Shown: one piece after another, positions 5,764-46,336 of the stretch
Layout: each line of letters starts with the position of its first letter
Position numbering within the stretch: position 1 is the stretch's first letter
DNA from: Yuukianura sp. NJ FZ-2021
Taxonomy: Eukaryota
Direction of reading: 5' to 3'
Length of the DNA: 64,000 bases
NCBI GenBank assembly: GCA_046563655.1
Contig: CM102287.1
Location: forward strand, 2,046,001 to 2,110,000
The notes under the pieces: generated by a model
Told to the model about the DNA's origin: nothing
What the model saw: the letters and a program-made list of their open reading frames with translations, nothing else
Database searches by the model: none
Made by a program: the position numbers and the translations under genes

Positions 5764-7018
5764 ATGCCACCTAAGAAGAAGGGGTGCTCTAATACCAAAG
5801 GCGAACCTGCTCCGAAGGTTCTGAAACTGCAAGACACCGATGGTAATTCTTAAAATAGAACAAATTTTCAACATCGTAAATATACTTTTTTTGAAAATCG
5901 TTCATTTATTTAATAGAAAACGAAAAGTGTGACGCTACTATTGATCATGCTCAAAATGCCAGTGATGTGAGTGATAGCGGCGCTTTCATTGCACCAATTG
6001 CGGAACATACTGTCCAACCCTCAGGTAATTGCTACAAGTACTTTGAAAACTTAACATACATGTAGCGTTTATAGTGCTGCGACTAATAATTTATTAAGCA
6101 AATCGATGTGAATCAACTCTGAGTGAACCCATGCCTGGTTCTAGCGATACTCAAAGTTGCATGTCGCCGTTTCAGCAGTGGAAAAGCCAGATTGAAAAAG
6201 CTCAAGTGAAATCAAACAAGGACCCAGCTGAACTTCCCGTGATCGCTGTGAAGCAGCTACATCCTAACATCCCGGTTACTTCTCGAGTAATCGAAGTCGT
6301 GCTGAAAGTTGCACAACCAATGGCGTACGGAAACGGGACCAACTGCAGCATTTTGTTTTTGGTGACGAGTCCGGGGAGATCCAGTTCACGTTATTCGGAG
6401 GAATGAAACCACAATGGGAGTCCCTGCTTCAGGTATGCATAACGTATTATTTCTTGAACCATAATTTTAAAATATATTAGAAGTTATCAAATAAACTGTT
6501 TCAGGTCAACTCTTTTGTTCGAGTAGAAGGCTTTCTTCTTCGGCCAAAGGATAATCGAAACAAATGGACGAATGCATCATTTGATGCAAGCAGTACTGAC
6601 GCCACCTCTATTACCGAGCCCAAAGGGGCGAGTCATGAAGTAAAACTAACTCCGATCGACTCAGAAGATCTCAAGTTGATGTCGGATGGTCGGATTCGTG
6701 GACATGGCTGGACTCGTAATTGATGTCGGTGAGATTCGTGAGTTTCCTACATGCAAGCTTCGACAAATCACTCTGGTGGACAAGACGGGAAAATTCAATG
6801 CCAAGTTGTGGAACCACTTGGTGGAAATGGAGGAAATCATCCCCTTTGAGGTGATTCTGTTCAAACTGGTGAAGATCTCAAGTTACAACGGCGTCAACTC
6901 AATTGAATGTAACCCCGGGGATTTGATCTTAGTGGGAAAAGATCATAGCATGGCCAAGCATTTGTTAGAGTGGTTCGAAGCCGCGGAGGCAGATACGCTG
7001 AATCGACTATTTCAATAG
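5764..7018 (+). pseudogene. RPA70-like ssDNA-binding protein (two OB folds), Helentron cargo, spliced and frameshifted
   Basis: DBD-A-like GDESGEIQFTLF...VNSFVRVEGFLL and DBD-B-like VDMAGLVIDV...RQITLVDKTGKFNAKLW...AKHLLEWF. GT-AG introns at 5843-5916, 6025-~6080 and 6433-6504. Frameshifts near 6360 and 6690. Confidence 0.8.
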
Positions 7019-7127
7019 TGAAAATATGAATCAATTCTCATACAAAGTGATCAATTTACAAGAACGAAACTAATTAAAAAAAATAAATAAGACAAAAGTG
7101 TTTATGATTATTGACTTTTTAAAGAGG

Positions 7128-7403
7128 AAAACTTGTTAAGGCTTGAAAAAAAATTCCCAACTTGAATGCTAGAGTTAAACTTGAATTTTTCCACAAACTA
7201 CCAACTGTATAGTATCGAAAAAGCGTAATTACTTAAAAATTCTTCGTGGAGTTTACACAGAAAAACTTGTTGAAGTATGAAAAATAATTCCTTACCTGAA
7301 GGTTAGAGTTAAACATAAATTTTTCCACAACTTACTGACTATATTGATTCGAACAATGTTCACTCCTTGAAAATTCTTCGTAGCGTTTATCTAAGAAAAC
7401 TTG
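7128..7403. repeat. Diverged tandem duplication, ~134-bp period
   Basis: AAAACTTG...TAGAGTTAAAC...TTTTTCCACAA...AAAATTCTTCGT recurs at ~7128 and ~7262, and partially at ~7396. Confidence 0.7.
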
Positions 7404-10432: not shown

Positions 10433-11169
10433 TCATCGTCCTCGTTGTGGTTCGACTACCTGTTTTCTCATAGTTTTGGAATATTCATACCATGCAGAGA
10501 ATTGAGCAAGATTCAGTGATTCCAATGCAAGTGGTCGTTGAGCATAGTGATCAGTTGGACTAGTAAAGAAGATGTTCTGGTCATCGGGGTCCAACTGGGA
10601 TAGATCCGCCTGAGACTTCAACATTCTGGTACGATGGCTGGCAGGAGCAGTCTGAACAAAGACACACTTCTCCGAAGAGTAGCTCATTGGCATTTGTAGA
10701 ACATTGGAAGCGGCTTCTTGTGCGGATAATTCACTATTGAGGTTATGAGCTGCCCCAATCGCTTGCAGGCTGTCTTTCAGCGGTGTGTTTCCTTTCCGCA
10801 CTTCGTCCACAACATTCCTCAAGAGTTCCGAGAGACCTCGATTGCTTTTGTTTATGTAGTCAACAATATAGCTACAACAGGCGTATGGATCAAGGATGAA
10901 TTGAATATCCATGTTGGACTTTTGCAGACGCAAAATCTTCTCGTTGTAGGGGTTGATATAAACTTCGTTCGGTTTACGTCTCAAAAACACATGTGGCTTC
11001 TTCAATTTCGTCTGAATCACGTTTAAATACAATTGAAGATCGCAACCTATTGCTTCCAGAAATGCTTCGAATGACATTCCGGTGTCTAGAACTTGATTTT
11101 CCAAAAAATCTCGAATAGTTTTGTGTAATAACTTGAGATACTTGAGTTGTGCTGTGTCTTCCAGGGGTA
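10433..11169 (-). pseudogene. Helentron Rep C-terminal part
   Basis: INPYN...NMDIQFILDPYACCSYIVDYINK (YxxxY catalytic tyrosines) and ELSAQEAA. Joins in frame to the segment right of 26186 once the insertion is removed (KTRILV-PLEDTAQL). Confidence 0.9.
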
Positions 11170-11835
11170 CTGTTCAGATCAAAAAAGAAACCGCAAAAAC
11201 ACCTGCAATCTGTCATGTGCTTTTTTCCCATAAGAAAAAAGAAGCTCCTCACTTCTCCATTCCTCTCCTGCAAAAGGAGGGAAGTTCTTTTTTGACAGAT
11301 GTCTTTTCAAAAAAGAGATAGAGATTAGAGATTGCGCCGCAAGTCAATGCTCCGCCAAAAATAATTACAAAAATTATAAATACAATAAAAAATTATAAAT
11401 AAAATAAGATTAAGAATATCCTTACATTATTCAATTCGTCCACTAGGCATAACATTTTGAAACACTTCATAATATTATTTCCATAATTTTCACCATTTCC
11501 GTCTAAGCTTAGTTGCTGTAATCATAAGTCTTATATTATCACTTCCCTTTTCTTTGCAAAAAGAACATGTTTTCAAGTTTTTATCGTATTTTTTGTGCTA
11601 CGGTTAGGTTCAAAGTACATAATGTTGTTAATGACAGCATCTCTTCAACGCATGCAAAATTCCCTTCCTTTCAAATTCAAATTCTGAGAATTGATACTAA
11701 ACGAAAGACATGAACCCATATAACTCTCCACGGGGTCAGGTCAAAAGGTTAGCCTGCCTGTTTCTGGCAGGCTTTTCAGAATAAGTATTAATGATAGTTT
11801 TATAGCTTGTAATTAATATTAGCCAATATGTTTAG

Positions 11836-12457
11836 TGTTACACTGGAATTAGTGTAGTGCCGCTTCGGAAGGGCCCTCGGGGTCAGTCGATGTTCTCCCA
11901 AGGGGTCAAGGGTCTTAAGGACCTCTTCCCGGCGATGAGTTCTGTCCTTGTGTGAAATAAATATTTGAATTTGTGTGTAAGCATACCTTATTTGTGCTGA
12001 TTGCTGATTTATTTACGCTTAAGTGCTGGGGGTACTTATTCCTTAGTGACTTCTCCGACTCTTCTCTCTGACTTTCCTTTCTTACTTCTAAACCGTGACT
12101 GAATGTTATTTATACAAAGGTGCTTAATTGCTTAATTAAGGTTGCTAGGTGGTCGTTAATTGGAAATTTGAACAACAACTTTTGCTTCCCTAACCGCATT
12201 AGCGGCGCTGGCTGTGGTAGTACTAATTGGATAAATTTACAATCTTCTTCCACTTGGCCTTGTGGTCACTTGGCCTTGTGGTTTCCGCTCAGAAGGAATT
12301 AGCCTGGTGCTTGGTGTGCTTAGTGACTAAGTCTACTTGGCAACTAGATGTGCTTAGCAACTAGGTAGTGCACGTGCGACCTTGGTCCAGTGTTTTGTGG
12401 AAGTGAAAGTACAAGTGCGGGCACTGAAAGTATTGTTGTGCAAGTGCAGGTGCAACA
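11836..12457 (-). repeat. 3' LTR, family 1 (622 bp)
   Basis: Direct repeat of 25234-25857, with about 10 substitutions and one 2-nt indel counted by eye (~98% identity). Confidence 0.97.
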
Positions 12458-12515
12458 CTTTCCACTGCCTAATCTTTTTGTCGTCCCGACAAAACAAGTG
12501 GTTGAAGGTGATGAC

Positions 12516-13766
12516 TCATTCTTGGGGTGGTTGTCGTCGTTCGAGTTCCAGAAGCCTATCCTGCATATCCCGAACCTGGCGTACTAAGTCGGGGATAAGG
12601 ACATCGGGCGGTGGTAAGTCGCCAAGGGTGAGTTGTCGTTGAAGTGCAGTGGGGTATGGCGTCATTCGTCGGCTGGATGTGGGAGTGGTGGATTCTGCGG
12701 CTCGTCGGCTCGGTGAGCGTATCTCTTCCATGAATTCGGGGCCAAACCAGACAAGTAACTGTGGGATGAGTTGGGACGCTCTGGCTTCGTCCATTCCGGG
12801 TGGTTTGGGTAACGTGGTAATCCGTCGGGACAGTCCTCTGATGAACTCAAGATTGGTACCGGTCTTCCATCGCATGTAGTCGGCAACGAAAAGTTGAGTG
12901 GGAACGTCCAAGACTCGAGCGACATAAATGATGCTGGCGCGAATGCGTGTATCACGATGGTCGGTTGGTAGGGTATTTGAAAAGAAGTGAGTTAGACGAA
13001 ACGGCTCTGCGGTTTGTTCATGGGTGGTCTCGAGCATGCTTTGTAAAAGCGCTGGGATGTCAATTGATCCGATTGCGTAACCGTCCTGTAGGTACACGGT
13101 AATATCTTTCCACAGTTGAGCGATTGTCTCTGTGTGATCAACCATGCGAGGGTCGTCTTGTTGCATGCGGTGTTGGGGGAAACCTGCCGGTATGGTGACC
13201 GTAGACTGGAAGTAGCTTCTCACGGTTCGTGGCGCCGCATGGTCTGGCAAACCGTGTATGTGGCAGCGGATAGTCTCTACGTCCAAGACACTGCGCGGAA
13301 TGACTCCGAAATCTCGCTCAATCCACTGTTGTTGCTCCTTTCCGTTGTAGCAAATCTTCATTATCCGCGGTGATGCAAACAGAGTTTTTAACGGGCCGTG
13401 CGTGTCTTCATCTCTGGGGTCCATGATGAAGGTTTTGTTCTTGGACACAATGACTAGACGGCAGATCGCTCCGATGTATGAATGTGGCCATTCGAAACAG
13501 GCAAAGACAACTGGAGAGAGTTCGATTGCTTGTGAGACATGTGCCGTAACTTCTTCTTTCGTCTTCAAGACCGTGTAGTTAGATGGAGGTAGGAGCCATC
13601 CTGGCGTCCAAAGTGAATCGTGCATACGAGTTTCGTCAATGTCTAGCACTTCCATCCGGTCTGGGCGTATCATTCGTGCTCCGTCCGTGAGGTTGCGCAC
13701 TTGTGTTTGTGCGTACTTGAGTTGTGGGAGGTTCCGTGAGACTGAAGGTGCGATGTCGAATTCCAT
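12516..13766 (-). CDS. Rrp6/RNase D-like DEDDy exonuclease-fold protein, probably catalytically inactive, 416 aa
   Basis: Intact ORF between env and the 3' LTR. FACFEW..SYIGAICRLVIVSKNKTFIMDP...LKTLFASPRIMKICYN...WIERDFGV....VLDVE follows the Rrp6 pattern VDLE...CLMQIST...FIID...L...F.DP.I.KVFHG..D..WLQ.DFG....FDT, but the ExoI and ExoII Asp are replaced. HRDC-like VARVLDVP segment. Confidence 0.72.
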   Translation of the reverse strand: MEFDIAPSVSRNLPQLKYAQTQVRNLTDGARMIRPDRMEVLDIDETRMHDSLWTPGWLLPPSNYTVLKTKEEVTAHVSQAIELSPVVFACFEWPHSYIGAICRLVIVSKNKTFIMDPRDEDTHGPLKTLFASPRIMKICYNGKEQQQWIERDFGVIPRSVLDVETIRCHIHGLPDHAAPRTVRSYFQSTVTIPAGFPQHRMQQDDPRMVDHTETIAQLWKDITVYLQDGYAIGSIDIPALLQSMLETTHEQTAEPFRLTHFFSNTLPTDHRDTRIRASIIYVARVLDVPTQLFVADYMRWKTGTNLEFIRGLSRRITTLPKPPGMDEARASQLIPQLLVWFGPEFMEEIRSPSRRAAESTTPTSSRRMTPYPTALQRQLTLGDLPPPDVLIPDLVRQVRDMQDRLLELERRQPPQE

Positions 13767-13880
13767 GGCTAAGGAGTACCTGAGAAGGTGAAAATTAGAT
13801 TAGACGTACAGTGTGCATGATTTGGTGTGCATCGTCAGGATCGTCATGAGTCAATTTCTGGGTGTGGGTAGCGTTTGCGC

Positions 13881-16154
13881 TCAATAGTTATAGCCCGGTT
13901 CAGGGTTTGTGCCGTTTCCCACATTTGTTTCGGCAAATGAGACTCGTCTGGCCTCAGAAAGAGGATAGTCGTAGTAAACTTTCGGTGGAGTCTCTGGTTG
14001 TTGAGTGGCTTTATGGAGTTCGTTGATCGTCTCGTACTCCGTCTCAATCCGTTCAGCAAGGTTGGCTAGTGCACTGGTCCTAGGGAACTTCAAGTTCGTC
14101 AGTGGGTTGCGTTTCACGACAGGGCTGCTTCGCGTCAATTTGGCAGTTTGGGTTGCTGCAGCATAAGTCACCACCGGTTGTCCTTGGGTCTCAGTTTGGT
14201 TTCGTCGTCGCAGGATGCAGTACCAGTACAGGGTGAATATTATGATGATGGTCATCAGAACCAGAGCTAAGGCAAAGTTGCTGGCATGGTGGTAGTCGAC
14301 GTGGTCCGATTGTGCTGCTACTCCTCGTAGTCTGTCCAGGAACGGCAAGGCAAAGGTCAAGCCCGGGGAGGCTTGCAGTTGCTTGTAGAGTAGGAACCCT
14401 AGTCCCAAAGTGAGGCAGACATTCCAAATGATCAATGCCGTGTTAGTTGATGGCGGAATGATGTGCATCAACTTAGGCACCATCATGGTCTTGAGTTGAC
14501 TGATTTCGGTCAAATTCAGTCGGGGTGCGTCGAGGTCCCAGGATTCGTTGAAGACAGATTTCAAGTTAGGGAAGACAGTTTGGCTTCCGTAGTTCCGGTC
14601 GTGGGCTGGTTTGAGCATGATGTCGATCTTCGACATCATTGCTGGTATGACGATTGTGACTCGTGGTGCGTCCGCCATGCCCGTGGGGCATGGATACGGT
14701 GGTCGAATTGTCCGTCGTCCTGGAACTTGTAGTTCGCAGTCGCAAGAGAGTCTGACTTCAAGGCTTCCAATCTGGTCAGATGGTGGCTGCACGGGGTGAG
14801 TCCTGTTGTCCGAGATCCCGCGTTCTCCGCACTGGATCTGCATTCCTTCTGGGGCTCCGGTCAGAATGAAAGTGTGGTAGTCCAATTGAGTTACGCTGAA
14901 GTCTCCCGGTGTGTTGAGACATTCAAAGAGGCAGACTTCGTTGAGTTCTCGAACGCTGGCTCCGCGTAAGAGCCGTTGGGCGCATAAGTATCCGGTCATC
15001 GGGTCGGAGCTGAACTGTGGTACGTGGCAGAGTCCGGTTTCGGGGTGGCATTGTTGGAGTTGTGTGCCTTGGATCGTCACGAGTTCTTCTTCGTTAACGG
15101 CTAGGTATGCTGGAGCGTGTTGAACAATGCAGGTGCTGCCCTTATAACTGAACGGCACGTTTATCATTTCGTAGAGCTTCCAATTGTCTACGAGCTTCTT
15201 GATGGGTACCCGAATGCGGTACATAATCCGTCCTCCGTCGCTGAAAGCGCAGTCAGTGAGCTTCAGTTTGTAATACCGTGTGACTTCCTCGATGGGTATT
15301 ACAAGTCCGTAGCCGTCGGCTAGTAGCTTCCGGCTGGCTTTGCGGAGATCTGCTGCTAACTGGGTCGGTGGGACTGCCAAAATGGAGATGGTTTGAGCTC
15401 GGCAGTGGTCCTGGAGATCCTTGAAGCGCATCAGCTCTCCGATTTGGTTGAGGTAGTCGAACACTTGGAGAAAGGTTCGTCTAGTGGAATCTCCTTCGGC
15501 GGTAAGCAAGGTCATTGTCCTTTGCACACTTGCGTTGCTGTCCTGCATGGCGGCCTGTTGTTGGTAGAGTCGGTTGACGTGCTCGTGCGCGGTTTGGAAG
15601 AGTCGGGTGACGTTCTTCCCAAAAAGTTCCATTGAGGTTTTCAGGTTCATCACGTTCTGGTTGTTTATGACAACTGAGCCCTTAATGGCTTCCATGAACT
15701 TCTCGATGCTCTCACCGTTGACCTGGAGGTCCTGCATGTCTCTTTTGGAGACGAATCCGCAACAAAAGCTGAACATGTCGCTGACTAGGGTGAGAGGGTT
15801 GAACGATTGCCATGTGAGGTCCCGTTTCGTGCGTCTTGGGCTGGTTCCGGTCATCATCATGTCGTCCTTGATGGATGCAAACATCTTGGTGAGGTAGGTT
15901 GTGTAGGGTCGAATGTTCATTGGGAAGGTGCAGCCTTCAGTTTGAGCGTCACGGCATGTTCCTTCCATGACATTTCCAATCGGGTTGGTAAAGTTGACTT
16001 GAATGTCATAGACCAGGGGAATTGTAGCGGTGTACAATTCCGTTCCTTTGACCTCCCGAACGAGAGATCCTGTAGTGACTCTGACTTCGGTGGGCTGAAT
16101 TGAGAACGCATTGGTTCCTCCCATGATGGTTGTCAGTATAACCAGCCACTCCAT
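13881..16154 (-). CDS. env: Envelope glycoprotein, class I fusion (baculovirus F/errantivirus-like), ~757 aa from ATG 16154
   Basis: Signal peptide MEWLVILTTIMGGTNA, furin site RRTKR (~15822-15836) followed by a hydrophobic fusion-peptide-like stretch, heptad region, Cys-rich ectodomain with N-glycosylation sequons, and C-terminal TM helices. Lies directly after pol. Confidence 0.88.
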   Translation of the reverse strand: MEWLVILTTIMGGTNAFSIQPTEVRVTTGSLVREVKGTELYTATIPLVYDIQVNFTNPIGNVMEGTCRDAQTEGCTFPMNIRPYTTYLTKMFASIKDDMMMTGTSPRRTKRDLTWQSFNPLTLVSDMFSFCCGFVSKRDMQDLQVNGESIEKFMEAIKGSVVINNQNVMNLKTSMELFGKNVTRLFQTAHEHVNRLYQQQAAMQDSNASVQRTMTLLTAEGDSTRRTFLQVFDYLNQIGELMRFKDLQDHCRAQTISILAVPPTQLAADLRKASRKLLADGYGLVIPIEEVTRYYKLKLTDCAFSDGGRIMYRIRVPIKKLVDNWKLYEMINVPFSYKGSTCIVQHAPAYLAVNEEELVTIQGTQLQQCHPETGLCHVPQFSSDPMTGYLCAQRLLRGASVRELNEVCLFECLNTPGDFSVTQLDYHTFILTGAPEGMQIQCGERGISDNRTHPVQPPSDQIGSLEVRLSCDCELQVPGRRTIRPPYPCPTGMADAPRVTIVIPAMMSKIDIMLKPAHDRNYGSQTVFPNLKSVFNESWDLDAPRLNLTEISQLKTMMVPKLMHIIPPSTNTALIIWNVCLTLGLGFLLYKQLQASPGLTFALPFLDRLRGVAAQSDHVDYHHASNFALALVLMTIIIIFTLYWYCILRRRNQTETQGQPVVTYAAATQTAKLTRSSPVVKRNPLTNLKFPRTSALANLAERIETEYETINELHKATQQPETPPKVYYDYPLSEARRVSFAETNVGNGTNPEPGYNY

Positions 16155-16188
16155 TCTGAATATAGAAGATTTAGGGTTAGAACTTACG

Positions 16189-19100
16189 CTAGGTAAACCG
16201 TGCAGGTTTACGGATCTGTCGCCCTGCGCGTGTGACATAGGGCGTTTGTGACCTTTTGGTTTCATCTATGTCGGCCTTGTCGACCTTTGTGTCGACCTTC
16301 TCCTCTTCCGAGGACTCACTACTACTCTCGCAACTGTCCTCGCTAGTCGAGGTTGCAGTAGAGCTACTGTCATTCTTTTCGTCGTCAGAAGTCAGAGGCG
16401 ACGATGACGTAGGTATTGTAAAGTTTTGAAGCACTGGAGGCGGAGCATTGCCTTCCCCAACTTGATTTGCTGCTACTCCCGGAGCAGCTTCAGTGGTCGC
16501 AAATTCGAGTAGTGACTCGGAGTACGGTTTAAGATGATCGATGTGGGCCCGAACATGAGGCGCGTCGGGATCGGCGCGTGGCACGCACCAGTACGAGAGT
16601 GGGGAGTGTTTCTTGGTGATGACGTAAGGTCCACGGTATCGCATCGCAAGTTTGCGAGAAGTACCGGGTGCTGGTTTGTGAACCTTGATGAGGACAAGGT
16701 CCCCTTCATTGTATTCGAAATCCAGTCGGCCGACGTTAAAGAGTTTGCATTGGCGTTGTTGGCTCTGTTGGAGACCTTTGCGTGCCGCGTCTCGTGCTTC
16801 CTGCATTCGCCGAATGCGCGTCGGAATGTCGGTGGATAGTCGGACCGTCGTACACGATGTCAAGAGGGTGATAGGGATGACGACCGTAAAGGATATAATA
16901 GCTGCTATATCCAGTAGAGTCCTTGTGCACTGCAGTGTTGAGTGCAAAAACGGCGGATCCAAGATATTTGTCCCAGTTGCGCTGGTTCGACGAAACGTAG
17001 TTGGTGAGGATTTCTTCAATGCTACGGTTGTTCCGTTCCACCAGCCCATTAGTCCTGCTGTGGTATGGCGATGAATAGACGTTGGTCGCCCCGATCAGGG
17101 AGTTGAATTGCTTGAAGAACGAAGCGGTGAAGGTAGAGGCGTTATCCGTAAGGATCGTTTTGAAGACGCCGTGAATTTTGGATGATTTCCATAAGGAAAT
17201 CTAGCATCGCTTTCGTAGTATTGTGGCGTATGGCCTTCGCGTAGACGTATCGTGAGAGGAACTCGACTAGGACGACAATGTACTTATTTCTCGACTTTGT
17301 AGAGGGCAGGGGCCCGATGACATCTACGCTGACTCGGTCGAAGAGGTCACCTACTGGGATGGGTGACAACAGTCCGGCGGGGTGTGTGTTCCGGACTCGG
17401 CGCTTCTGACAGCTGGCACAGTTCCGTACGTACTCGGTTATAAGCGCGTCGAGCCTGAACGCGAATATGCTGTTCCGAGCCCTGGCAAGGGTTCGGGCGA
17501 CGCCTAGATGACCCATGAGTACGTCGTCGTGAAAACGAGGTAGAATGGAGTGCACCATGTGCGTCGGGATTACTGGAAGGTTAGCCTTCGTTTGTTTGCA
17601 CTTGTATTGTAGGAGACCGTCGTCTACAGTGAAGCGTTTGTGGAGCTTGCTCCTAGCGTTTGTAGTGAGAGTAGCTAAAATTTTCTGAAGCTTCTCATCG
17701 TCTTGTTGTTGGCGTAAGAGCTCGGTACGCGACTCCATCGGGGTAACAAATTGCATTGCGTACCAGTGTACTGGGAACTCATCAGTAAATGTCGCAGCGT
17801 GATCCTCCACAGGGAAACGTGAGAGGCAGTCTGCTTGAACGTGGCTTTTCCCATTGACGTGCTTTATGGTGTAGTCCACGTCCTGGAGTCGTAATGCCCA
17901 ACGTGCCAGGCGCGAGTTGCGCAAATTCCTGCACGTTTTGAGGTAGCAGAGGGCGTGATGATCGACCACAATCGTAAAGGCTTTGAAGCCAATATACTCT
18001 CGAAATTTTTCAATTCCCCACAGGACTGCTAGGCATTCTTGTTCACTGGTGTTGTAGCGCTCCTCAGCGCCACGGTAGGTGCGGCTGGCGTAAGCCACCA
18101 CGCGTAAAGTGTCTCCCTCTCGTTGTTGGAGTATGGCGGCAATGCCCTTGTTTGACGCGTCTGTGTGTAACTCGAGTTCTGCATTCTCATTAAAGAATGC
18201 GAGGATGGGTGCGGAAACCAAACATTGGCGAAGAGAATCGAAGGCTCCCTGTTCTTGGTCGCCCCACTGAAAAGCTACGGTACTTTTCGTGAGCTCAGTC
18301 AGTGGTTTCGCAATTTGGCTGTAGTTCTTGATGAAGCGACGGTAATATCCAGTACAGCCAAGGAACGTCCGTACTTCGTGAACGTTGGTGGGAGGTCGCA
18401 TCTCCGTGATGGCCTTAACTTTGTCAGGGTTGACGGCAACTCCATCCCCTGTGATGATGTGACCAAGGAGTGCTAATTTCGTTTGTCCGAAGTAACATTT
18501 CGGTGGTTGAAGGGTAAGATTGTAAGCACGAAACTGTCGGAAGACATTTTCCAAGTTGGCCAAATGTGACTGAAAATCTTTGGCGAAGACGCATACGTCG
18601 TCAAGGTATGCGGTGCAAATGGAGTGGATCCTCGTCCCAAGAACTGTCTTCATGAATGCACTAAAGGCGGCTGGTGCGCAGGTTAGGCCAAACCCCATGT
18701 AGAGGTGTTCGTAGGCGCCGGCATGAGTTACGAAGCTTGTCTTCTCGACGTCGTCCGGATGAATCGGGATTTGGAAGTAGCCGGACATCAGATCCAGGCA
18801 AGAGAAGTACTTGGCGCCATTCAAAGAAGCCAATAGTTCAGAAATTACTGGCATAGGCCAGTTGATGGTTTTGGTGACGAAGTTGAGTTTCCTCCAGTCG
18901 ATGACCATCCGGTATTTGTCACTGTTCGGTTTCTTAACTAAAGAAACTCCAGCGGCCCAAGGGGAGCGGCTTTCTCGAATAATTCCTGCTTGTAGAAGTT
19001 TGTCGACTTCTTCTTCAATGATTTTCTTCTCCGCCGGGCTCTTCTTGTAAGGTGGGCAGCTTACTGGTAGTGCGTCGCCAGTGTCGATACGGAAAGTTAC

Positions 19101-20153
19101 ATCCTTTGCTTTGCCCAACTGATCCAAATTCCAAGCGAAGATGTCGCCATATTCTAAAATGAGAGCGCGGAGTTGCGCTTGTTCGTCGGGGCTTAAGTCT
19201 GGATTTATTTGAAGTTGGTCAATATTTTCCCGGGTGGATTCCTGCCGTTGCCGGCGGATTTCCTCTTCTGGTTCCGTTTCTCGAACCAAAACACGGTAGA
19301 TATTCCCGACGTTGACTCCGCGGTACAACTTGACAGCGACTGGACGCGGGTTATCAATGGGGATCTCGAAGTCTCCTTCTGCGACATGAGCGAGTCCTGG
19401 GGCACATAGGCCTAACTTGTCGAGGGCTTGGCTATTCGGTTCGAAAGCAAGGATTCCTCGGAGCTGGTCAACTGGAAAGACCTTGATGAGCGTGGTTGAG
19501 AATGGTGGCAACATTGTTTCCTCAACTGTAAGAACTTTTGGCATCGAGGGACCATGAACCTGGGTAGCGTGAACTTGTTCGCGTTGCATGGTGTTTAGAC
19601 TCAGTCCAAGGGCGGCTGGGGTACGTAGGTTGAATCCTCGCGGTACCTTCATACCTAGGAACTGGAAAGTTCCATGTTCCAGCGACTTCGAATACTTCAA
19701 TTGCAGTTCATGTTCCAATGTAAAGTCATTCCCGAGGATTACATCGTAGGATATGTCCGCCAGGACATAAAACTTATGCGTTAGCAGAGTGGTTGACTTG
19801 CGGGAAAATGTGACTTGCCGATAGACGTAACCGAGTACCGTGACCTTCGACCCGTTTGGAAGGTCGAGAGCTGATGAAGAGTCTATGGGCCTGATTTCGT
19901 CCGAAGTGACATTGTTGAGCCGAATTATGCTGACTGGGCATCCCGTGTCAAGGAGACACGAGCATCGCTTGAGTTTTGAGTTTTGTGACAAAAATATGCT
20001 AATTATGAGGTTGCCGACTGGATCCGTACTACTAGGGTCTCCTGGAAAAGCTGTGTTGCGGGTCATCATAGCTAGAATTGGTCGTGTTGGATTAGAGGGT
20101 TTAGCGTTTGAGTGGGCTTCAGACCTCTCTACTGTCGCCGCGCTGCGTTTCCC
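16189..20153 (-). pseudogene. pol: Gypsy pol (PR-RT-RNase H-IN), integrase frameshifted
   Basis: LLDTGC protease, YLDD RT, LHTDAS RNase H, HxxxxxGH...CASC and VSVDVIGP integrase, and a GPY motif. The integrase is spread over several frames, with shifts at ~17160, ~17045 and ~16830. Confidence 0.95.
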
Positions 20154-21598
20154 TGAGCCGATACAGTTCGTCCTGCCGTCGGAGCTGAAGCTACAGCTTC
20201 GGAAGAGTTGCCTCTGTGTTCCGGTTGTCGCCGGGGGCAATCGAACGTAAGGTGTTCTCCGTCACACTGAGCGCAGCGGGGGTCCCGAATAGTGTTCCGC
20301 AAATATGATTGGTAGCGAGAGCACTCCGCTCGACGGTGTTGCGGTGATCCGCACTCGAAGCATCCACGGAACGTAGGTCGGTCTTGCCATGGTCGCCATG
20401 GGCGACCGTTGCTGCGCTGTCCAGAGCTGTATGGATTGGTTCCCGGAGATTGACGTGGTTGATCGCGATTGTACCCGTGGCCTGCTTTGCCCCATGCTGG
20501 GCGTCGTTTCACCGTGCGTCGCTCCACAGCTTGTGGTTCCGCTGGTGCTTCCAAGTTCATGTTGTTGAAGCGTGCAGTCAATCGGGGTAGATCGGTGCCT
20601 GCCCGTTTCCGCTTCATCATGAAGTCGTAGTTCTCCTTTTCTATAAGAAACTGCGTCACATCTTGCGGCGTCTTCGGTTGACGTAGGAATATCTCGTGAC
20701 TGACATCTGCTGGCAACCCCTTGAGCAGGAAGTTGACCCGCTTTTCGTCCTTCATGGTGGTCCCTTGGCTTTTGTCCAACTGGTCACATAGTCGCAGCAC
20801 CTTGCCGCAGTAGTCTTCCACGCTCTCTTTTGGATTTCTCTTCCGTTGAGCCAAGCGGTATTCCAATTCTTCTTCAGTCAGCCGTGACTTGAAGCTAGTG
20901 TGGAATCCCTCCTTTAGGGTCTTCCATGGAAGAGCGACAACGTCGCCGTTGGCGTCTCGATTGGCTGGGTCACGCTCCCAGTCGGTGCGAAAGTTCAAGA
21001 ACCAGGTTTTCGCATAGCCCTTGAGGTAAAGCGGCAGATGGCGCACTTTCGCAGCCTCGTCCCAACGTTGATTAACAGCTATTGCCTTGAATGTCTCCTA
21101 GAAATTCCTGGCTGGGTAACCTCGCTTCCCCTCGAATGTTGAATCGCCCGGTGGTGTCCAAACGGATACCACAACACTCGGTGCGGGAGTCGTCAGCACA
21201 ACAGGTTGCTGAGGTCCCGGAGTAGGTGGCGTGCCTGTGCCTCCTGGCATTCCAGATGCTGGTGGCTGTCCGCCACCGGTTAGGTTCACAACTGGGACTG
21301 TTGAGCTTGGCCCACCAGCTCCTGCTGGCGGCGTCGGTGGGGTAGTCGTTGCGGGCACCGGAAGAGTGAACGCGCTCCCGGTCCCTCCGGCGGGTCCGAA
21401 TGTCCCGCCCGTTTGGCCCGTTGTTGGGCTTACAACAAGGTCGCTAGTTCTTGTCGTCGCACCGGCTCATGCCGTGGGCGTCTTCGGCCGTTGCCGATCC
21501 CGTTCCTTTGCCTCCTTCAGTACTGCGGAGAGGTCCGCAAGTCCGTACGTTGGTGGAGTCCCGTCCTGTCGGGTGTGTCGATGAGCTGGATCCGACAT
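20129..21598 (-). pseudogene. gag: gag with two in-frame stops
   Basis: ATG 21598, ORF 21098-21358 and ORF 20129-21046 share one frame, broken by TGA 21467-21469 and TAG 21098-21100. Capsid-like LYLKGYAKTWF and ESVEDY; knuckles CFECGSPQHRRAEC and CAQCDGEHLTFDC. A -1 slippery heptamer GGGAAAC at 20153-20147 leads into the pol frame. Confidence 0.9.
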
Positions 21599-22669
21599 GA
21601 CTTACTTCGTCTTCTTCTTCTTCTGAAAGGATCAGATGATTAGTTGTATTTGGTCCCCTAGGGCGTGGGATGATGTAGGGTCGAGGGTTGGATAACTTCC
21701 TCCCTCGGCATTTGCAGAAAAATGAAATAGCTATTGCCCCCATGCCGGCTAGTAACCCTACTATGAAACCGCGCATGAAGGTGTCGGGGTTGAATATATC
21801 GGACATAAGGTGGGCAGTTTGACAGTCTACCCCCAGTTGAAGATATGCGTATAGGGACTTGTCCATGAGTAGCTTGTTTTCCCGGGTTATCAGCTGGACC
21901 CGGCCTTTCTCGTAAGTGTAAACGCCTCGTTCCGTGTCCCGAATACCGACAAGGCGTAGATCTCGTAGGTGAGGGTAGGGCATGTAGATGTCGGGCTCGT
22001 CCCATAAGGTTTGAATCATGCCCTTCTCTAGGTATAGCGGCCTCCATCCAGTAGCCAGCATGATCCAAAGGGTGTGTTCTGATGGGAAGTACCCCAAAAC
22101 TGGGTATGTAATGCCAAAGAAACTTCGGTGCTTGAGTCCTGGTGTAATTAGGTGGCCGTCTGATAAATATACTCCGATTTGGTCGTCAACCATAACATAG
22201 AGGTAACTCGCGACGCCGACTGTGAAGTTGATTCGGCCGTCCGGCGGGAAGTCCTCGAAGAAATCGGCATTCTGCACTGGAGTAGGAAGTAGTGTCCCAG
22301 CTCCTGTAACTCTAACGTGACTTTTCCCGTGGAACAAGAGGTGGTCCCCATTGAGGTATCCAACATGATCGTACCACAGGGTACTCAGGCCTCGGATGTT
22401 TTCTCCATCCGGCCCTTCGTCGAAGAATCCTGGTGGGTACAGGACTTTCAGTGCTTCTTCGTCGGGAACTCCTATTTCCGTAACGTGCGGCCAGAACTGG
22501 TACCATGCTGTCATCACAGATCCTATGGCACGAGTGTGTGGCAAGGCCAAGGCGTGGCCTATTTCGTGTAGGAGTACCGAAAATAGATTGACGTGTTCGT
22601 CGTCTTCTCCGAGAGACCAAGTCTCGTTTGCGTCTAGGTGGATTTGTCCGCCCATAACTGATCCTGGAT

Positions 22670-24181
22670 CAGAGGTGGTAGCCTGCAACTATTTTCCCCA
22701 ACCTGCCCCGCCTGCACTGCAGGAATTTTTAGCCTGCACGCCTGCAGCCTGCAAAATTGTCGAAAATCGGCAGCCTGCACGCCTGCACCCGCAAGGCTCT
22801 TTGGCAGGCCAGCCTGCAGCCTGCGCAGGCTGCCTGCAGTTAGCCTGCAATTTTTTTATACGAACTGTAATCTGAAAAAATTTTAATATACACTTACAAC
22901 TACTGCGTAGATTCGTTTGCGTATAATGGCAATTACTCAATCACCCTCGATTATCTGTCGGTTGTCCTTTCCAAACACGTAGCGAGAAAAATTCCTTGTA
23001 ATAAATTGTTCTACGACACTTCTACCTTACTTTTGGTTAGACTTTCACGGCTCCGGCTCTTTGGCAAAGAGTCGAGTCGGAGTCGGAGCCGGAACCGACT
23101 CTCGACTCCCATATTTTCAAGGAGTCGGAGTCGGAGTCGAATAGCCGACTCGGCTCTTTACTCAAGAGCCGAGTCGGAGCCGGAGTCGAGCCGGGAGCCG
23201 TGGCGCCCGGAGCCGGGTATTTTTATCATGAAAAAATCAGAAAAATTTGCTACGCTGTACATTTCCAAGCCATTCGTACACAGACTTGTGGCGATTAACT
23301 AACGGATTAATGCAGTCATCAATGACGTTCAAAAAAGGTTACTGCTACTGTGCCTTAAATCAACAAAAATACATTTTATCTACTGTGAGAGAAATTAGGG
23401 AGACAAGAAACGACTCTTGCATAGTAGCGAGCAACGATTTTGAGCAAGAAACAACAATTATTTTCGTAAAATTCGCTGAAAAGTCACGTTTTCGACTCCC
23501 GGCTCTTGGCCTAACAAGGAGCCGGAGTTGGAGTCGGAGTCGGTACCGACTCCCGACTCCCATATTTTTCAAGAGTCGGAGCCGGAGCCGAAGGTCCGAC
23601 TCGGCTCTTTAAGGAAGAGTCGAGTCGGAGCCGAGCCGGGAGCCGCGGCTCCGGAGCCGTTGGAGAGCCGAGAGCCGTGAAAGTCTACTTTTGGTTTGTT
23701 TAACTTTTAAAAATTCTTGATCCTTGCACATAAAAAAATCCGCAAAAGTTATACTGTCAAATCTTGCGTTGTCTACACGTGCAAGTGTAACGCCAACTTT
23801 ACTTTTTAACCATATTTCTTCTTTCTCCGGATTCATTATTTATTGTTTAAAAGCCCTATAGTGCAACTAATGTGCAGCAAAAAGTTTGCATAGTTCCATT
23901 GACTTTAATTCTTCAACATTCCAAAGTAATTTTTCTATTCGTTTCTATCTTTTCTTGAAGTTTCTGAGAATAAAACGCTCAAAAAATCACAACCCGCAGC
24001 CTGCAGGCCAAATGCAGGCGCCTGCAGAGCATTGAAGACTGAACCCGCCCGCCTGCAACATTTCCAAATAAAAACCTGCACGCCTGCAGCCTGCAAAAAT
24101 CCACCGCAGGTTGAGCCCGCCTGCACGGGCTGCAGGTTGGCCTGCAACCTGCGCAGGTTTACCTGCAGGCTACCACCTCTG
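22670..24181. mobile_element. hAT-type MITE inserted in the MMP gene
   Basis: 18-bp TIR CAGAGGTGGTAGCCTGCA, 8-bp TSD TCCTGGAT (22662-22669 and 24182-24189), GCCTGCA subterminal repeats. Confidence 0.95.
23038..23687. mobile_element. Second hAT-type MITE nested in the first
   Basis: TIR TAGACTTTCACGGCTC, 8-bp TSD CTTTTGGT (23030-23037 and 23688-23695), GAGCCG/GAGTCG subterminal repeats. Confidence 0.95.
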
Positions 24182-25215
24182 TCCTGGATAGTGGGCGTGG
24201 GCTAGTGTGCCTCCACGTCCGTCACTGGCGTCATCATGAATTTCGTGTTCGAAAGTGATGGGGATGTCAGCACTCCCTTCTACGTAAGTAAAGGTGAAGT
24301 TGGAATAGCGTTGCCACTTCACAAACGCCAGACTGGCGTCAGCCAGTGCTTCTTCTCGGTCCATATCATATGGAGTAGGTCCAAGGGTCCAGGTAAGGTC
24401 CCTCTTGGTCCACCGGTGAGGGTTCACCGGACTTCGTCGAGTTCGTGTCGCCGGTGCCCACGGGCACATCATCGTTCCGGCGACCTCTGCAACGAGCGTC
24501 GTCCCGACGCAAAGTACAAGGAGCATCCGTAGAGTCATACCGTCCAGGTATCCTGTAACAGGGTTGAACCGCCAAGGTTCGGTAATTTGTTTCATTGCTT
24601 CGTTTGTAGCCTCGTTGTGTTTCGCTCCTCGGGGTATGCGACAGGTGTCGAAGAAAAACCTCTGTCCTACGTCATCGCCTCTCTCGAGTGGTCGCGACTC
24701 CACCCTCAAAGCGACTTCGATTACTTGCGCTAAATGGGCAGCTGTAGGGTCTGGGACCTCAATGTTCTACAGCCCGGTCAAGATTTACACCGTTGCCGAG
24801 GTGACGGCCCACCGTCCCTCAACCCGTTCCTTCACGGAATATTTCTAGACGTTCGGTTTCATCTACGCCAAGCGCGGAGAGCAGTGAATCTTCTATACAA
24901 GTCGTTAATACGCCAGCCAGCTACCCAACTGGCTGGGGAAGAAAGTAGCGTCGAAAAAGAAATGACAGTAGGAGTTTCCTCCCCCTCTCTCAATTGTGAG
25001 AACAATAAGTTAGTAAGTTACGTTATTGTCTTACGTTACTGACTACGTTATAGTTTCGCGCACACATTCATTCAATACGTTAAGTTACGTTAACAGCTGC
25101 ATTAAAGACTGCGGTATTGTAGTAACAATAGTCTCATTTGAATAAACAGCGCAAGAAAGAAAAGCAAACAGCCGCAGAGGCGGGAACCTCTTATTGTTTT
25201 AAAATAAATTGCCAT

Positions 25216-25231
25216 CTCGGCAAATGCACCA
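25216..25231 (-). promoter_or_regulatory. Primer-binding site, family 1 (tRNA-Gly-like)
   Basis: TGGTGCATTTGCCGAG lies 2 nt inside the 5' LTR and resembles the complement of the tRNA-Gly(GCC) 3' end, TGGTGCATTGGCCGGG (recalled, not searched). Confidence 0.7.
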
Positions 25232-25233
25232 TT

Positions 25234-25857
25234 TGTTACACTGGAATTAGTGTAGTGCCGCTTCGGAAGGGCCCTCGGGGTCAGTCGATATTCTCCCAAG
25301 GGGTCAAGGGTCTTAAGGACCTCTTCCCGGCGATGAGTTCTGTCCTTGTGTGAAATAAATATTTGAATTTGTGTGTAAGCATACCTTATTTGTGCTGATT
25401 GCTGATTTATTTACGCTTAAGTGCTGGGGGTACTTATTCCTTGGTGACTTCTCCGACTCTTCTCTCTGACTTTCCTTTCTTACTTCTAAACCGTGACTGA
25501 ATGTTATTTATACAAAGGTGCTTAATTGCTTAATTAAGGTTGCTAGGTGGTCGTTAATTGGAAATTTGAACAACAACTTTTGCTTCCCTAACCGCATTAG
25601 CGGCGCTGGCTGTAGTTGTTCTAATTGGATAAATTTACAATTTTCTTCCACTTGGCCTTGTGGTCACTTGGCCTTGTGGTTTTTCCGCTCAGAAGGAATT
25701 AGCCTGGTGCTTGGTGTGCTTAGTGACTAAGTCTACTTGGCAACTAGATGTGCTTAGCAACTAGGTAGTGCACGTGCGACCTTGGTCCAGTGTTTTGTGG
25801 AAGTGAAAGTACAAGTGCAGGTAGTGAAAGTATTGTTGTGCAAGTGCAGGTGCAACA
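25234..25857 (-). repeat. 5' LTR, family 1 (624 bp)
   Basis: Direct repeat of 11836-12457 and adjacent to the PBS. Minus-strand TATAAATA at ~25505-25512 and AATAAA at ~25406-25411. Confidence 0.97.
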
Positions 25858-26186
25858 TTAGCGTAAATGTATCAGTTGTATTTTAAGGAAAGGTGCGTAT
25901 ATTAATAGTTTACTAGGATTATTGTTTTTCAACTTTTAAATTATATAGTCTTACTCTTATTTTATTTATAATTTTTGTAATTATTTTTGGGCGGAGCATT
26001 GACTTGCGGCGCAATCTCTAATCTTCGTCTCTTTTTGGAAAAAACACCTGTCACAAAAGAACTTCCCTCCTTTAGCAGGAAAGGAATGGAGAAATGAGTA
26101 GCTTTTTTTGTCTCTTTGTTCCTTATGGGAAAAAAGCACATGACAGATTGCAGGTGTTTTTGCGGTTTCTTTTTTGATCTGAACAG

Positions 26187-35909: not shown

Positions 35910-37136
35910 GGGTCACATACCTAGGGTCACACATTCAACACAAAAGTTGTTGGCCTCGATGAGATGAACAACTTTTGTAGAGGTCATTTTCCATGTTACC
36001 GGGTGTAAAACCGGTTGACCTTGACCTTTGACCCGGAAGGAGTTGACACCCGGGGGTCATATTCAATAGTTACCAAGCCCGGGTCATGACATGGTCACCG
36101 GTGAAAACCGGAATGAAATCGGACCAGTAGTTTCTGAGATAATTAATCCGGACAGACAGACAGACGGACAGACAAACCTCTTTTATCATAATAGCTTCGC
36201 TATTATAATAAACCGGTTGTAAACCGCCCATACTGATAATAGCGAAGCAATAGGCCCCCCGAAGGGGGTTTGTTCCCCCCACTTTCCCGCCTCCCCCCTC
36301 CGGGGGGAGTGGGGGTGTGTTTTTCCCAGTTTTCCGCCCCCCCCCGGGAAGTAGGGGTGTTTTCCCGCTTTTTTGCTCCGCACCCCAGGAGGCGTGGGGT
36401 GTGTTTCCCCCACTTTCCCGCCCCCCCCCCCTCCCGGAGTAGTGGGGGTGTGTTCCCCCCACTTTCCCGCCCCCCAGGTTGTTTTGACAGGTGAGACGTG
36501 ACAGCTGAGGCGTGACAGGTGACACCCGGCAAGTGACACTTGAGGGTGCCAGGTGACACGCGGCACGTGACAGGTGACACCCGGCAAGTGACAGGTGACA
36601 CCCGGTATGTAACAGGTGACACCCGGCAATTAGCAGGTGACAGGTGACACCCGGCAGGTGACAGGTGACACCCGGCAATTAACAGGTGACAGGTGACACC
36701 CGGCAAGTGACAGGTGACACCCAGTGGACACAGTGCATTAGTGTGTAATGTGTATATGTCAAGTGCGTAATAGATTTTTTGCTAAGCAGAGAATCAAGTC
36801 CCATGCCAATTGCCTTTCCAGTCTCACAAGCAGAGATTTTGTTACACACACTTGCATTACAAATGACCTTTGAAATCGATTTTGACCCGGAAGCAGGTGA
36901 CCTAGGGTCACACATTACACACAAAAGTTGTTCCCCTCGATGAGATGAACAACTTTTGTAGAGGTCATTTTCCATGTTACCTGGGATGAAACCGGTTGAA
37001 CTTGACCTTTGACCCGGAAGGAGTTGACACCCGGGGGTCATATTCAATAGTGACCTAGTCCGGGTCATGACAGGGTCACTGGTGAAAACCGGAATCAAAT
37101 CGGACCAGTAGTTTCTGAGATAATTAATCTGGACAG

Positions 37137-37186
<50 letters not shown>

Positions 37187-38048
37187 CACTTTTATCATAA
37201 TAGCTTCGCTATTATAATAAACCGGTTGTAAACCGCCCATACTGATAATAGCGAAGCAATAGGGCACCCCGAAGGGGGTTTGTTCCCCCCACTTTCCCGC
37301 CCCCCCCCGGGGGAGTGGGGGTGTGTTTCCCCACTTTCCCGCCCCCCCCCGGGGGAGTGGGGTGTGTTCCCCCCACTTTTACGCCCCCCCGGGGAGTGGG
37401 GGTGTTCCCTCCACTTTTTTGTGAAGTGCCCCGGTTTTCCCCCTTTAGGTTAGGGTCAATTGCCCCTTGAGGTTAGGGAGTGGCCTTAGGTTAGTGTAGT
37501 TAGGCTAGTGGTTAGTCTTAGCGTTAGGTTAGTGAGATTGGTTTAGCGTTTTAGCGCGAGTTTTGAGTAGAGTTAGCGTGGTAGAGAGGAGAGAGACTGG
37601 TTGTGCCAGTCAGTCGGTATTTGGTGGTTGTCTAAGACTGTGTATCTTTTGTACAAATAAATATATTTTATATTTATTTGTCTTCGTGTCTTTCGTGTTG
37701 TTCTTTGGTGTCCCTTATGGTCCTCAGTTTTGTGGCATGAGTCCGGCAGTGCTCGGATCGTAGTCTGGAGGCCATCTTTGGCAGTTTTACGTAGCACGAG
37801 GTGCTACACATGGCGACCGTTTTGTGAGTGTTACTGCTGAGGTCAAAGGTCACAATGGTGTAACAACACATGGTGAGTGTTAAAAACTTTTATTCTGTGT
37901 CAAGTGGGATCAAGACATCATGTAATTGTTCGTGAGTGGACGTTACCCTTGGTCAAAGGGAATTGGCCTTAATTCCGAAGTGGATCATCTGTAAATTTTG
38001 TACATAGAAGGAGGAAGTTGCCGAAACAACTTCCACTGGATCCACTCC

Positions 38049-43021: not shown

Positions 43022-43081
43022 CACGTGCTCTGTTCAGTTGTTCTTTTTCAGTGTTTTGGAAGTCATTTTGTGACTTCCATC

Positions 43082-45100: not shown

Positions 45101-46305
45101 AAGGAGGAAGGTGAAGTGCCCCGGTTTTCCCCCTTTAGGTTAGGGTCGTTTGCCCCTTGAGGTTAGGGTGTGGCCTTAGGTTAGTGTAGTTAGGCTAGTG
45201 GTTAGTCTTAGCGTTAGTGAGATTGGTTTAGCGTTTTAGCGCGAGTTTTGAGTAGAGTTAGCGTGGTAGAGAGGAGAGAGACTGGTTGTGCCAGTCAGTC
45301 GGTTTTTGGTGTTTGTCTCAGCATGAGCTGATGATCTTGTATTTATTGTACAAATAAATATATTTTATATTTATTTGTCTTCGTGTCTTTTGTGTTGTTC
45401 TTTGGTGTCCCTTATGGTCCTCAGTTTCGTTGCATGAGTCCGGCAGTGCTCGGATCGTAGTCTGGAGGCCATTTTTGGCAGTTTACGTAGCACGAGGTGC
45501 TACATTTGCTCCGCACCCCAGGGAGCGCGGGGGTGTGTTCCCCGGGGGAGAGGGGGTGGGTGCCCCGGGGGAGAGGGGGTGGGTGCCCCGGGGGAGAGGA
45601 GGTGGGTGTCCCGGGGGAGGGGATTGGTAATTATAAGATACATGTTAATTAATATAAGATTATAAGATTAATTGAATAGACAGCCGCACTCCAGATTTCT
45701 TGCGTGTGGCGCAATAGACAGCCACACTCCAGATTTCTTGCGTGTGGCGCAATAGACAGCCACACTCCAGATTTCTTGCGTGTGGCGCAAATATGAGCCA
45801 CAGTCAAGATTTTTTGCGTGTGGCGCAAATATGAGCCACAGTCAAGCCACGTGACAGGTGACACCCGGCAAGTGACATGACAGGTGACACCCGGTGGACA
45901 CAGTGCATGAGTGTGTAAAGTGTTATGTCAACTGCGTAATAGATTTTTTGCTAAGCAGAGAAGCAACTCCCATGCCAATTGCCTTTCCAGTCCCTCAAGC
46001 AGAGTTTTGTTTACCCACACTTGCATTACAAATGACCTTTGAAATCGATTTTGACCCGGAAGCAGGTGACCTAGGGTCACACATTACACACAAAAGTTGT
46101 TCCCCTCGATGAGATGAACAACTTTTGTAGAGGTCATTTTCCATGTTACCTGGGATGAAACCGGTTGACCTTGACCTTTGACCCGGAAGGAGTTGACACA
46201 CGGGGGTCATATTCAATAGTGACCTAGTGCGGGTCATGACATGGTCACTGGTGAAAACCGGAATCAAATCGGACCAGTAGTTTCCGAGATAATTAGTCTG
46301 GACAG

Positions 46306-46336
<31 letters not shown>

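Follow-up and report, generated by a model that had tools for sequence, protein, structure and literature searches.

The closest described counterparts of the gene reported here are the DEDDy-type exonucleases encoded by open reading frame 3 (ORF3) of Juno and Vesta, long terminal repeat (LTR) retrotransposons of bdelloid rotifers, and of the Athena/Terminon elements (Rodriguez, Kenefick and Arkhipova 2017, PMC5408684). As described there, the invariant residues of the rotifer proteins are intact (DEDD or DEED), and the ORFs, which are common to LTR and Athena elements, were acquired independently in two clades. A DEDDy exonuclease is also among the listed accessory domains of LTR retrotransposons (PMC6338049). 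EXD1 and Maelstrom are cited in the 2017 report as inactive DEDD derivatives that retain RNA binding (PMC5408684), and Egalitarian is described as binding localisation signals, that of the I factor retrotransposon among them, with active-site residues that are dispensable for binding. The env-carrying Ty3/gypsy elements called 'errantiviruses' are reported to be widespread in metazoans (Chary and Hayashi 2026, PMC13524379). Here we describe ORF4, the 3'-terminal accessory gene of an envelope-carrying Ty3/gypsy retrovirus-like element of approximately 14 kb in Yuukianura sp. NJ FZ-2021. The element, termed family 1, lies in a stretch of 64,000 nucleotides (assembly GCA_046563655.1, contig CM102287.1, positions 2,046,001 to 2,110,000 of the forward strand) that we refer to as the window and within which all coordinates are given. 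DEDDy ORF3s in LTR elements are already published, and the novelty of ORF4 is that it is an inactive version.

On the minus strand the ORF4 frame runs without interruption from 13799 to its TGA stop at 12516-12518 (427 codons), and from its first ATG at 13766 it encodes 416 amino acids (aa), as had been stated in the original prediction, which was made by inspection of the DNA letters. In shuffles of the region 12458-13880 (n = 200), the longest ORF had a maximum of 267 codons and a mean of 120. The gene is on the same strand as env and begins 115 nucleotides (nt) 3' of it, and a polypurine tract (PPT) starts 37 nt after its stop codon, leaving 36 nt between them. The features of ORF4 are as follows.

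12516..13766, minus strand: ORF4 (P0015), putative pseudo-exonuclease of 416 aa; stop codon 12516-12518, start context agccATGg.
12990..13592, minus strand: DEDD/DnaQ-like exonuclease-fold domain, approximately residues 59-259, predicted from profile, hhalign and model.
13491..13511, minus strand: ExoI remnant VVFACFE, residues 86-92.
13332..13349, minus strand: ExoII remnant YNGKEQ, residues 140-145.
13122..13145, minus strand: ExoIII remnant MVDHTETI, residues 208-215.
12732..12959, minus strand: helical domain behind the exonuclease fold, residues 270-345, with an ARxLDxP motif (predicted local distance difference test, pLDDT, 80-90 in model 2, described below).
12534..12608, minus strand: C-terminal predicted long helix, residues 387-411, from the low-confidence model 1.
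13780..13794, minus strand: pyrimidine tract plus CAG (ttttcaccttctcag), a candidate splice acceptor by motif, 14 nt before the ATG.

The idea that ORF4 is a real but very diverged homologue of the Rrp6/RNase D 3'-5' exonucleases is well supported by sequence comparison. The protein matches the Pfam family PF01612 (DNA_pol_A_exo1) with an E value of 1.1e-4. When 1.84 billion representative proteins were searched exhaustively with phmmer, four reached E<=0.001, and all four hit PF01612: three lie above the curated cut-off, two of these together with HRDC, and the fourth, P0006, is sub-threshold at 19.3 bits. Through P0006 we found two contigs, L001 and L002, both from one metagenome. The full-length relative encoded by L001, P0010, is 27% identical to ORF4 over 252 aa (BLASTP E 1e-26) and independently matches PF01612 (E 0.002; 18.4 bits, sub-threshold). 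A family profile was then built from four sequences, ORF4 and three metagenomic relatives. Against all PDB sequences this profile matched 17 at E<=1, and the top 13 were all Rrp6/EXOSC10, with Trypanosoma Rrp6 the best (2.9e-8) and the human and yeast proteins at 3.3e-6 and 4.4e-5. Ranks 14 and 15 (E 0.14-0.19) are T. brucei RNase D chains, and the last two matches (E approximately 0.9) belong to an unrelated family. ORF4 alone (single-sequence E 8.1e-5) matched 14 PDB sequences, 13 of them Rrp6/EXOSC10 and one RNase D. An hhalign comparison with five real DEDD enzymes gave 97.6% and an E value of 4.5e-12 over 126 columns.

The original prediction had aligned ORF4 by eye with the exonuclease of family 2, a second LTR element in the window. 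By BLASTP alone the two match without significance (E 0.073; 17% identity across 87 aa), with ExoI and ExoII nonetheless in the correct register. With profiles, the homology of ORF4 to DEDD enzymes is significant. The nearest neighbours of ORF4 in a protein language model were exonucleases and Exd1 homologues (score 0.87), which we take as a lead only. Kinship with EXD1 in particular was considered and set aside, as EXD1 is absent from the PDB profile matches at E<=1 and ranks 40th by Foldseek.

Behind the exonuclease fold, the helical domain with the ARxLDxP motif occupies the position of HRDC in Rrp6/RNase D. An HRDC profile built here reached an E value of 0.12 over four targets in the ORF4 family and matched only the VARxLDVP motif; an HRDC identity for this domain is unsupported at that score, and we do not adopt it. 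A linker rich in Ser, Thr, Arg and Pro precedes the C-terminal predicted helix, and P0010 likewise has a basic, helical-looking C-terminal tail.

Two structure models were considered. Model 1, an AlphaFold prediction from the family-only alignment, had a pLDDT of 40.7 and was too poor to use. Model 2 covers ORF4 residues 55-345 and was made with a 19-row alignment that includes Rrp6-like and RNase D sequences; its pLDDT is 71.3 overall and 80-90 in the core. Foldseek matched model 2 to RNase D (E 1.3e-7) and Rrp6 (E 1.4e-7), and VIA-align gave a Z score of 17.5 for RNase D (rmsd 3.1 over 181 residues), 16.4 for Egalitarian and 15.9 for human Rrp6. The matches are confined to residues 5-210 of the model, and identity to Rrp6 and RNase D in the structural alignments is 13-16%. 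Because the alignment behind model 2 held RNase D and Rrp6 sequences, the model is not independent evidence for the fold. Profile and structure searches nonetheless both return the DEDD fold, as had been proposed.

Within this fold the acidic residues that bind metal have been replaced. At the ExoI Asp position HMMER and hhalign place F88 and MAFFT places A89, while the register of the original prediction places C90. No acidic residue stands there under any placement, so this part of the earlier reading holds; its assignment of Cys to the Asp position does not, as HMMER and hhalign put C90 at the ExoI Glu. MAFFT has a gap at the Glu position, and only the register of the original prediction puts E92 there, where both metagenomic relatives have Gln. 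The ExoII Asp position is Q145 in every alignment, as had been read by eye. The YxxxD of ExoIII, reported absent, is indeed missing: HMMER places H211 at the Tyr position, with Ile or the inside of a 4-residue gap at the Asp, and MAFFT gives Leu and Ile (this MAFFT reading comes from a different alignment than that used for ExoI and ExoII). As read from these alignments, the core of ORF4 is a DEDD fold with Phe and Cys in ExoI, Gln in ExoII and no ExoIII Tyr/Asp pair. With its metal-binding acidic residues replaced, ORF4 therefore cannot carry out standard two-metal 3'-5' hydrolysis.

The same replacements are found in the relatives. Both L001 and L002 have VFSCFQ at ExoI and Gln at ExoII, and Gln occupies the ExoII position in 3/3 family members that cover the site. 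P0010 has kept the ExoIII Tyr and lost the Asp. The original prediction had left room for other copies to retain the acidic residues; L001 and L002, the only relatives found with the sites in question, lack them too and carry the same Phe, Cys and Gln.

The comparison between L001 and L002 provides the evidence for constraint. Two segments of 171 and 174 codons contain 61 and 62 codons with synonymous differences compared with 54 and 60 with non-synonymous differences. The non-synonymous divergence (dN) is 0.23 and 0.21, and the synonymous divergence (dS) is saturated in one segment and 2.97 in the other. The Phe, Cys and Gln replacements are common to both contigs and to ORF4, at 27% identity. 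Since they are common to lineages with saturated dS and a dN of approximately 0.2, the loss of the active site is old and the protein is constrained, so that a protein of the ORF4 type has been retained under purifying selection as a non-enzyme. In sequencing data from three runs of one sample in one study, examined as contigs, the pieces that cover ORF4 differ by 0-2.2% (0-13 letters per piece, with one gap in one piece). The one ORF4 difference among those listed is a double change, CTA to TTG, which retains Leu104. Of the catalytic codons, only that of Q145 lies in a piece with no differences.

In both metagenomic contigs (L001 63-2604 and L002 969-3902) the pseudo-exonuclease gene is directly 3' of, and overlaps, a dUTPase ORF (Pfam E 9e-40). 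A 246-aa ORF upstream of the dUTPase in L001 (P0011) has no match in Pfam, PDB or the Atlas.

Our preferred reading, which we hold with slightly better than even confidence, is that ORF4 is a conserved pseudo-exonuclease that serves the element as an RNA-holding helper and not as a nuclease; the original prediction had likewise suggested a non-catalytic decoy or RNA-binding protein. It would be translated from a spliced subgenomic mRNA, a possibility suggested by the candidate acceptor and the good Kozak context just upstream. By analogy with other inactive members of the fold, the dead nuclease cleft and the helical domain may hold RNA, with transcripts of the element itself, or the 3' ends of these transcripts, as the most likely target, and the C-terminal helix may mediate self-association. 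The benefit could be protection, export or trafficking of element RNA. For example, ORF4 might occupy 3' ends that would otherwise be trimmed by the nuclear exosome (Rrp6).

Several points weigh against this reading. The PF01612 score of ORF4, 22.5 bits, is below the curated cut-off of 23.6 bits. A Pfam scan at E<=1 finds neither PMC2NT nor HRDC in ORF4, and an exosome-binding tail is likewise undetectable. The family is tiny, as it consists of ORF4 and copies from one metagenome, and the L002 copy is broken. P0016, a further fragment, came from a word-indexed protein search with the family profile; the same kind of search gave no match to ORF4 and, with P0006, retrieved only P0006 itself, and scans of IMG/VR with P0010 and P0015 found no relatives. 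The model made from the family alone was poor, and the sole confident model indicates only compatibility with a DnaQ-like fold. Splicing and expression are suggested by a motif, and RNA binding by precedent. Finally, the openness of ORF4 in its one copy is compatible with chance and is no evidence of selection.

Among the alternatives, we think a viral-style counter-defence unlikely. In that case a dead version of the host Rrp6 exonuclease domain, seated on 3' ends or on structured regions of element transcripts, would block exosome trimming or decay, or entry into exosome-linked or Piwi-interacting RNA (piRNA)-linked silencing. The parts of Rrp6 that we take to contact Rrp47, Mtr4 or the exosome core are absent from ORF4, and any decoy action would therefore be on RNA and not on exosome proteins. 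For the same reason, the lack of PMC2NT, HRDC and an exosome-binding tail, ORF4 could not mimic the protein contacts of Rrp6.

We assign only a small probability to ORF4 being a decaying relic of an active exonuclease like that of family 2; ORF4 would then have lost its residues through neutral drift and would be open only because the insertion is young. The LTRs of family 1 differ by only approximately 1.8%, and one relative, in L002, is broken. The original prediction had noted damage in gag and pol, and this is present: the integrase has two reading-frame changes, and an in-frame stop (21098-21100) immediately precedes the gag capsid ORF. Together with an insert in the matrixin gene, these amount to approximately four lesions in approximately 9.6 kb outside ORF4, at which rate we calculate the chance of an intact 1.25-kb ORF at about 6/10. 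The argument that an open ORF4 amid damaged neighbours is a sign of retention is correspondingly weaker than first proposed, and the comparison between lineages is the real evidence of constraint. That comparison is also what speaks against a relic, as drift would retain neither the replacements nor a recognisable fold: the same Phe, Cys and Gln occur in L001 and L002, which are only 27% identical to ORF4, and between these two contigs synonymous sites are saturated while dN is approximately 0.2.

It would also count against an RNA-holding helper if ORF4 were still an enzyme, a nuclease or other hydrolase whose active site had been rebuilt in the way proposed for Maelstrom, for which an 'active site switch' in the DnaQ-H domain has been described. 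The Cys at ExoI and the Gln at ExoII are invariant in the 3/3 family members that cover both, and the ExoIII Tyr position is His or Tyr. However, the alignments reveal no conserved set of metal ligands or general base around the cleft, and to our knowledge Phe, Cys and Gln form no known catalytic constellation. We regard a rebuilt site as quite improbable.

It is scarcely credible that the similarity is spurious and that ORF4 is an unrelated accessory protein without a DEDD fold, such as a Rev-like adaptor: the pairwise BLASTP match to the family 2 exonuclease, the Pfam score below cut-off and the failed family-only model would all be expected, but independent searches converge on one family and one register, and only the last two of the 17 PDB sequences at E<=1 come from elsewhere. 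Equally remote is the idea that ORF4 is a host gene fragment or another transposon caught between the LTRs; the window holds one family 1 copy, but the gene is on the strand of the element, starting 115 nt beyond env and ending 36 nt short of the PPT, inside a unit bounded by LTRs and a target-site duplication (TSD), its composition equals that of pol and env, and terminal repeats such as those of the nested insertion in the matrixin gene were not seen on either side of it.

ORF4 was also compared with the exonuclease of family 2, which is found in two copies in the window.

43022-45100, with a second copy at 57697-59676: family 2 ORF3 exonuclease; the copies are 86% identical.

Family 2 ORF3 has an intact DxE, ExoII Asp and YxxxD, and its best PDB match is Rrp6 (E 2e-27), over the exonuclease and HRDC domains. 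The two elements are distinct, as had been claimed: blastn at E<=1 found nothing in the family 2 region that matches the LTR of family 1, the primer-binding site (PBS) is TGGTGCATTTGCC in family 1 compared with TGGCGACCG in family 2, and the two pol proteins share 31% identity across 699 aa. The ORF4 family profile scores family 2 ORF3 at 13-17 bits. It scores unselected Rrp6/EXOSC10 entries in PDB at 25.7-36.2 bits for the catalytic-domain entries (24.2-36.2 for all 13 rows) and P0007, P0008 and P0009 at 36-40 bits, the last being biased upward because these proteins were chosen as best hits. The alignment for a maximum likelihood (ML) tree had 17 rows and 167 columns; P0013 and P0016 were omitted because the domain is absent from both. 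The tree separates the ORF4 family, family 2 and eukaryotic Rrp6-like proteins from bacterial RNase D with support of 97/96, and it does not join ORF4 and family 2 ORF3. Forcing these two into one clade cost 1.15 log-likelihood units (approximately unbiased test p 0.233, not rejected). From these comparisons an 'Rrp6-like' ancestry of ORF4 is supported. For a clade that unites ORF4 and the family 2 exonuclease there is neither support nor rejection, and the data are compatible with either the repeated or the ancient acquisition suggested in the original prediction.

Two pairs of direct repeats, one nested within the other, bracket family 2 at 36683-37808 and 45111-46375. The members of the inner pair, at 37421-37808 and 45111-45504, are 92% identical and lie next to the PBS and PPT, and this pair has the appearance of the true LTR; the outer pair (36683-37222 and 45848-46375, also 92% identical) lies outside it. 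The ORFs of family 2, of 528, 1153 and 692 aa, are all open despite LTRs that are only 92% alike. Between the two exonuclease copies dN is 0.07 and dS is 0.35 for the whole ORF, with a dS of 0.68 in the exonuclease domain and no stops, and the active-type exonuclease of family 2 thus fits purifying selection too. Upstream of family 2, at 36524-36743, units of 21 and 28 nt (GGTGACA...CCCGGCAA) are repeated in tandem, and C/G-rich repeats come after them.

The element that carries ORF4 has the gene order LTR-PBS-matrixin-gag-pol-env-ORF4-PPT-LTR. Its parts are as follows.

25234-25857, minus strand: 5' LTR, 98.2% identical over 624 nt to the 3' LTR.
11836..12457, minus strand: 3' LTR (TG...CA), located by its match to 25234-25857.
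11832..11835 (3' side) and 25858-25861, minus strand: TSD CTAA, read directly.
12458..12479, minus strand: probable PPT AAAAAGATTAGGCAGTGGAAAG, abutting the 3' LTR and assigned by position and composition.
25216..25231, minus strand: PBS TGGTGCATTTGCCGAG, 2 nt past the 5' LTR.
13881..16265, minus strand: env ORF, 794 aa, with a signal-like N-terminus, an RRTKR site and a C-terminal membrane span.
16189..20261, minus strand: pol (protease, reverse transcriptase, RNase H and integrase), in ORFs 17142-20261, 16736-17200 and 16189-17094.
20129..21097, minus strand: gag, with capsid (Retrotrans_gag) and two CCHC knuckles; in-frame stop immediately upstream, 21098-21100.
21444..24766, minus strand: matrixin ORF (matrix metalloprotease-like, MMP-like), lying between the PBS and gag and split into two halves by the insert 22670-24181.

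All of the parts that characterize Ty3/gypsy elements are present in family 1: the LTR pair, duplication, PBS, PPT, gag, and a pol in the order protease, reverse transcriptase, RNase H and integrase. In GC content and strand skews, positions 12-14 kb of the window resemble 14-20 kb and are unlike the flanks. The match of env to Baculo_F in Pfam (E 2e-4, 20.5 bits) is under the cut-off of 24.1 bits. The matrixin halves match positions 1-82 and 75-158 of the Pfam Peptidase_M10 profile, and the gene carries HEIGHALALPH and a C-terminal membrane span. The insert that divides it (22670-24181, 1512 bp) has inverted repeats of 18 nt at its ends (CAGAGGTGG...) and a duplication of 8 bp, ATCCAGGA, and resembles a non-autonomous transposon of the hAT type.

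Family 1 encodes the heptapeptide TKRDLTW in two places (within 13881-16265 and 24170-24766, minus strand), namely the furin-like site of env (RRTKRDLTW) and the beginning of the catalytic domain of the matrixin (RWTKRDLTW). The repeat could reflect chance or a common history as processing sites. Just outside the 3' LTR, at 11000-11400, contig word depth in run X1 is approximately 5900-7400 compared with approximately 270-480 over ORF4; such depths do not equal copy numbers, and the region is probably a much more abundant repeat.

We know of no role for the exonuclease genes of LTR retrotransposons. A version that is conserved yet non-catalytic separates two possible roles, the holding of nucleic acid and its hydrolysis, and by analogy it may be the holding that the element needs, at least in the ORF4 lineage. 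This would parallel the host pseudo-nucleases Egalitarian, EXD1 and Maelstrom, which act on transposon RNA. The locus also indicates that env-carrying gypsy elements of invertebrates can bear accessory genes 3' of env, like complex retroviruses, and the unusually rich gene content of the carrier adds to its interest. If the counter-defence proposal were correct, family 1, with a membrane metalloprotease and a fusion glycoprotein for cell-to-cell spread, would be among the most gene-rich retrovirus-like elements outside vertebrates. Our literature searches, in which subscription-only papers and supplements were outside the scope, found neither an LTR element reported to carry a catalytically dead exonuclease nor one with a matrixin/MMP gene of its own.

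Like the errantiviruses, family 1 is a gag-pol-env LTR element, and its env is weakly similar to baculovirus F. In contrast, the main text of PMC13524379, where the word 'exonuclease' occurs 0 times, describes neither a fourth ORF 3' of env nor a matrixin gene 5' of gag. The rotifer ORF3s share with ORF4 the arrangement of an extra RNase D/Rrp6-like DEDD ORF at the 3' end of a Ty3/gypsy-type LTR element. However, ORF4, likened to them by description, has no acidic residue at the Asp position of ExoI, ExoII or ExoIII, and it follows an env, whereas most of the rotifer elements are described as being without a true env. Within the window, family 2 ORF3 likewise ends the coding part of a Ty3/gypsy element, ahead of the PPT and 3' LTR, and has Rrp6 as its best PDB match, but its catalytic residues are intact and no env lies upstream.

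Rrp6/EXOSC10 and RNase D are the best matches of ORF4 in both sequence and structure, with an exonuclease domain that aligns over approximately 200 residues. ORF4 differs from Rrp6 in lacking the catalytic residues and any detectable PMC2NT, HRDC or exosome-binding C-terminus, at 13-16% identity. No specific sequence link was found between ORF4 and Egalitarian, EXD1 or Maelstrom. These are host genes of animal germlines, as described, and Egalitarian, unlike ORF4, keeps its DEDDy residues. However, all three employ a DnaQ-like fold for RNA recognition and not for hydrolysis, and by analogy it is this use of the fold that we propose for ORF4.

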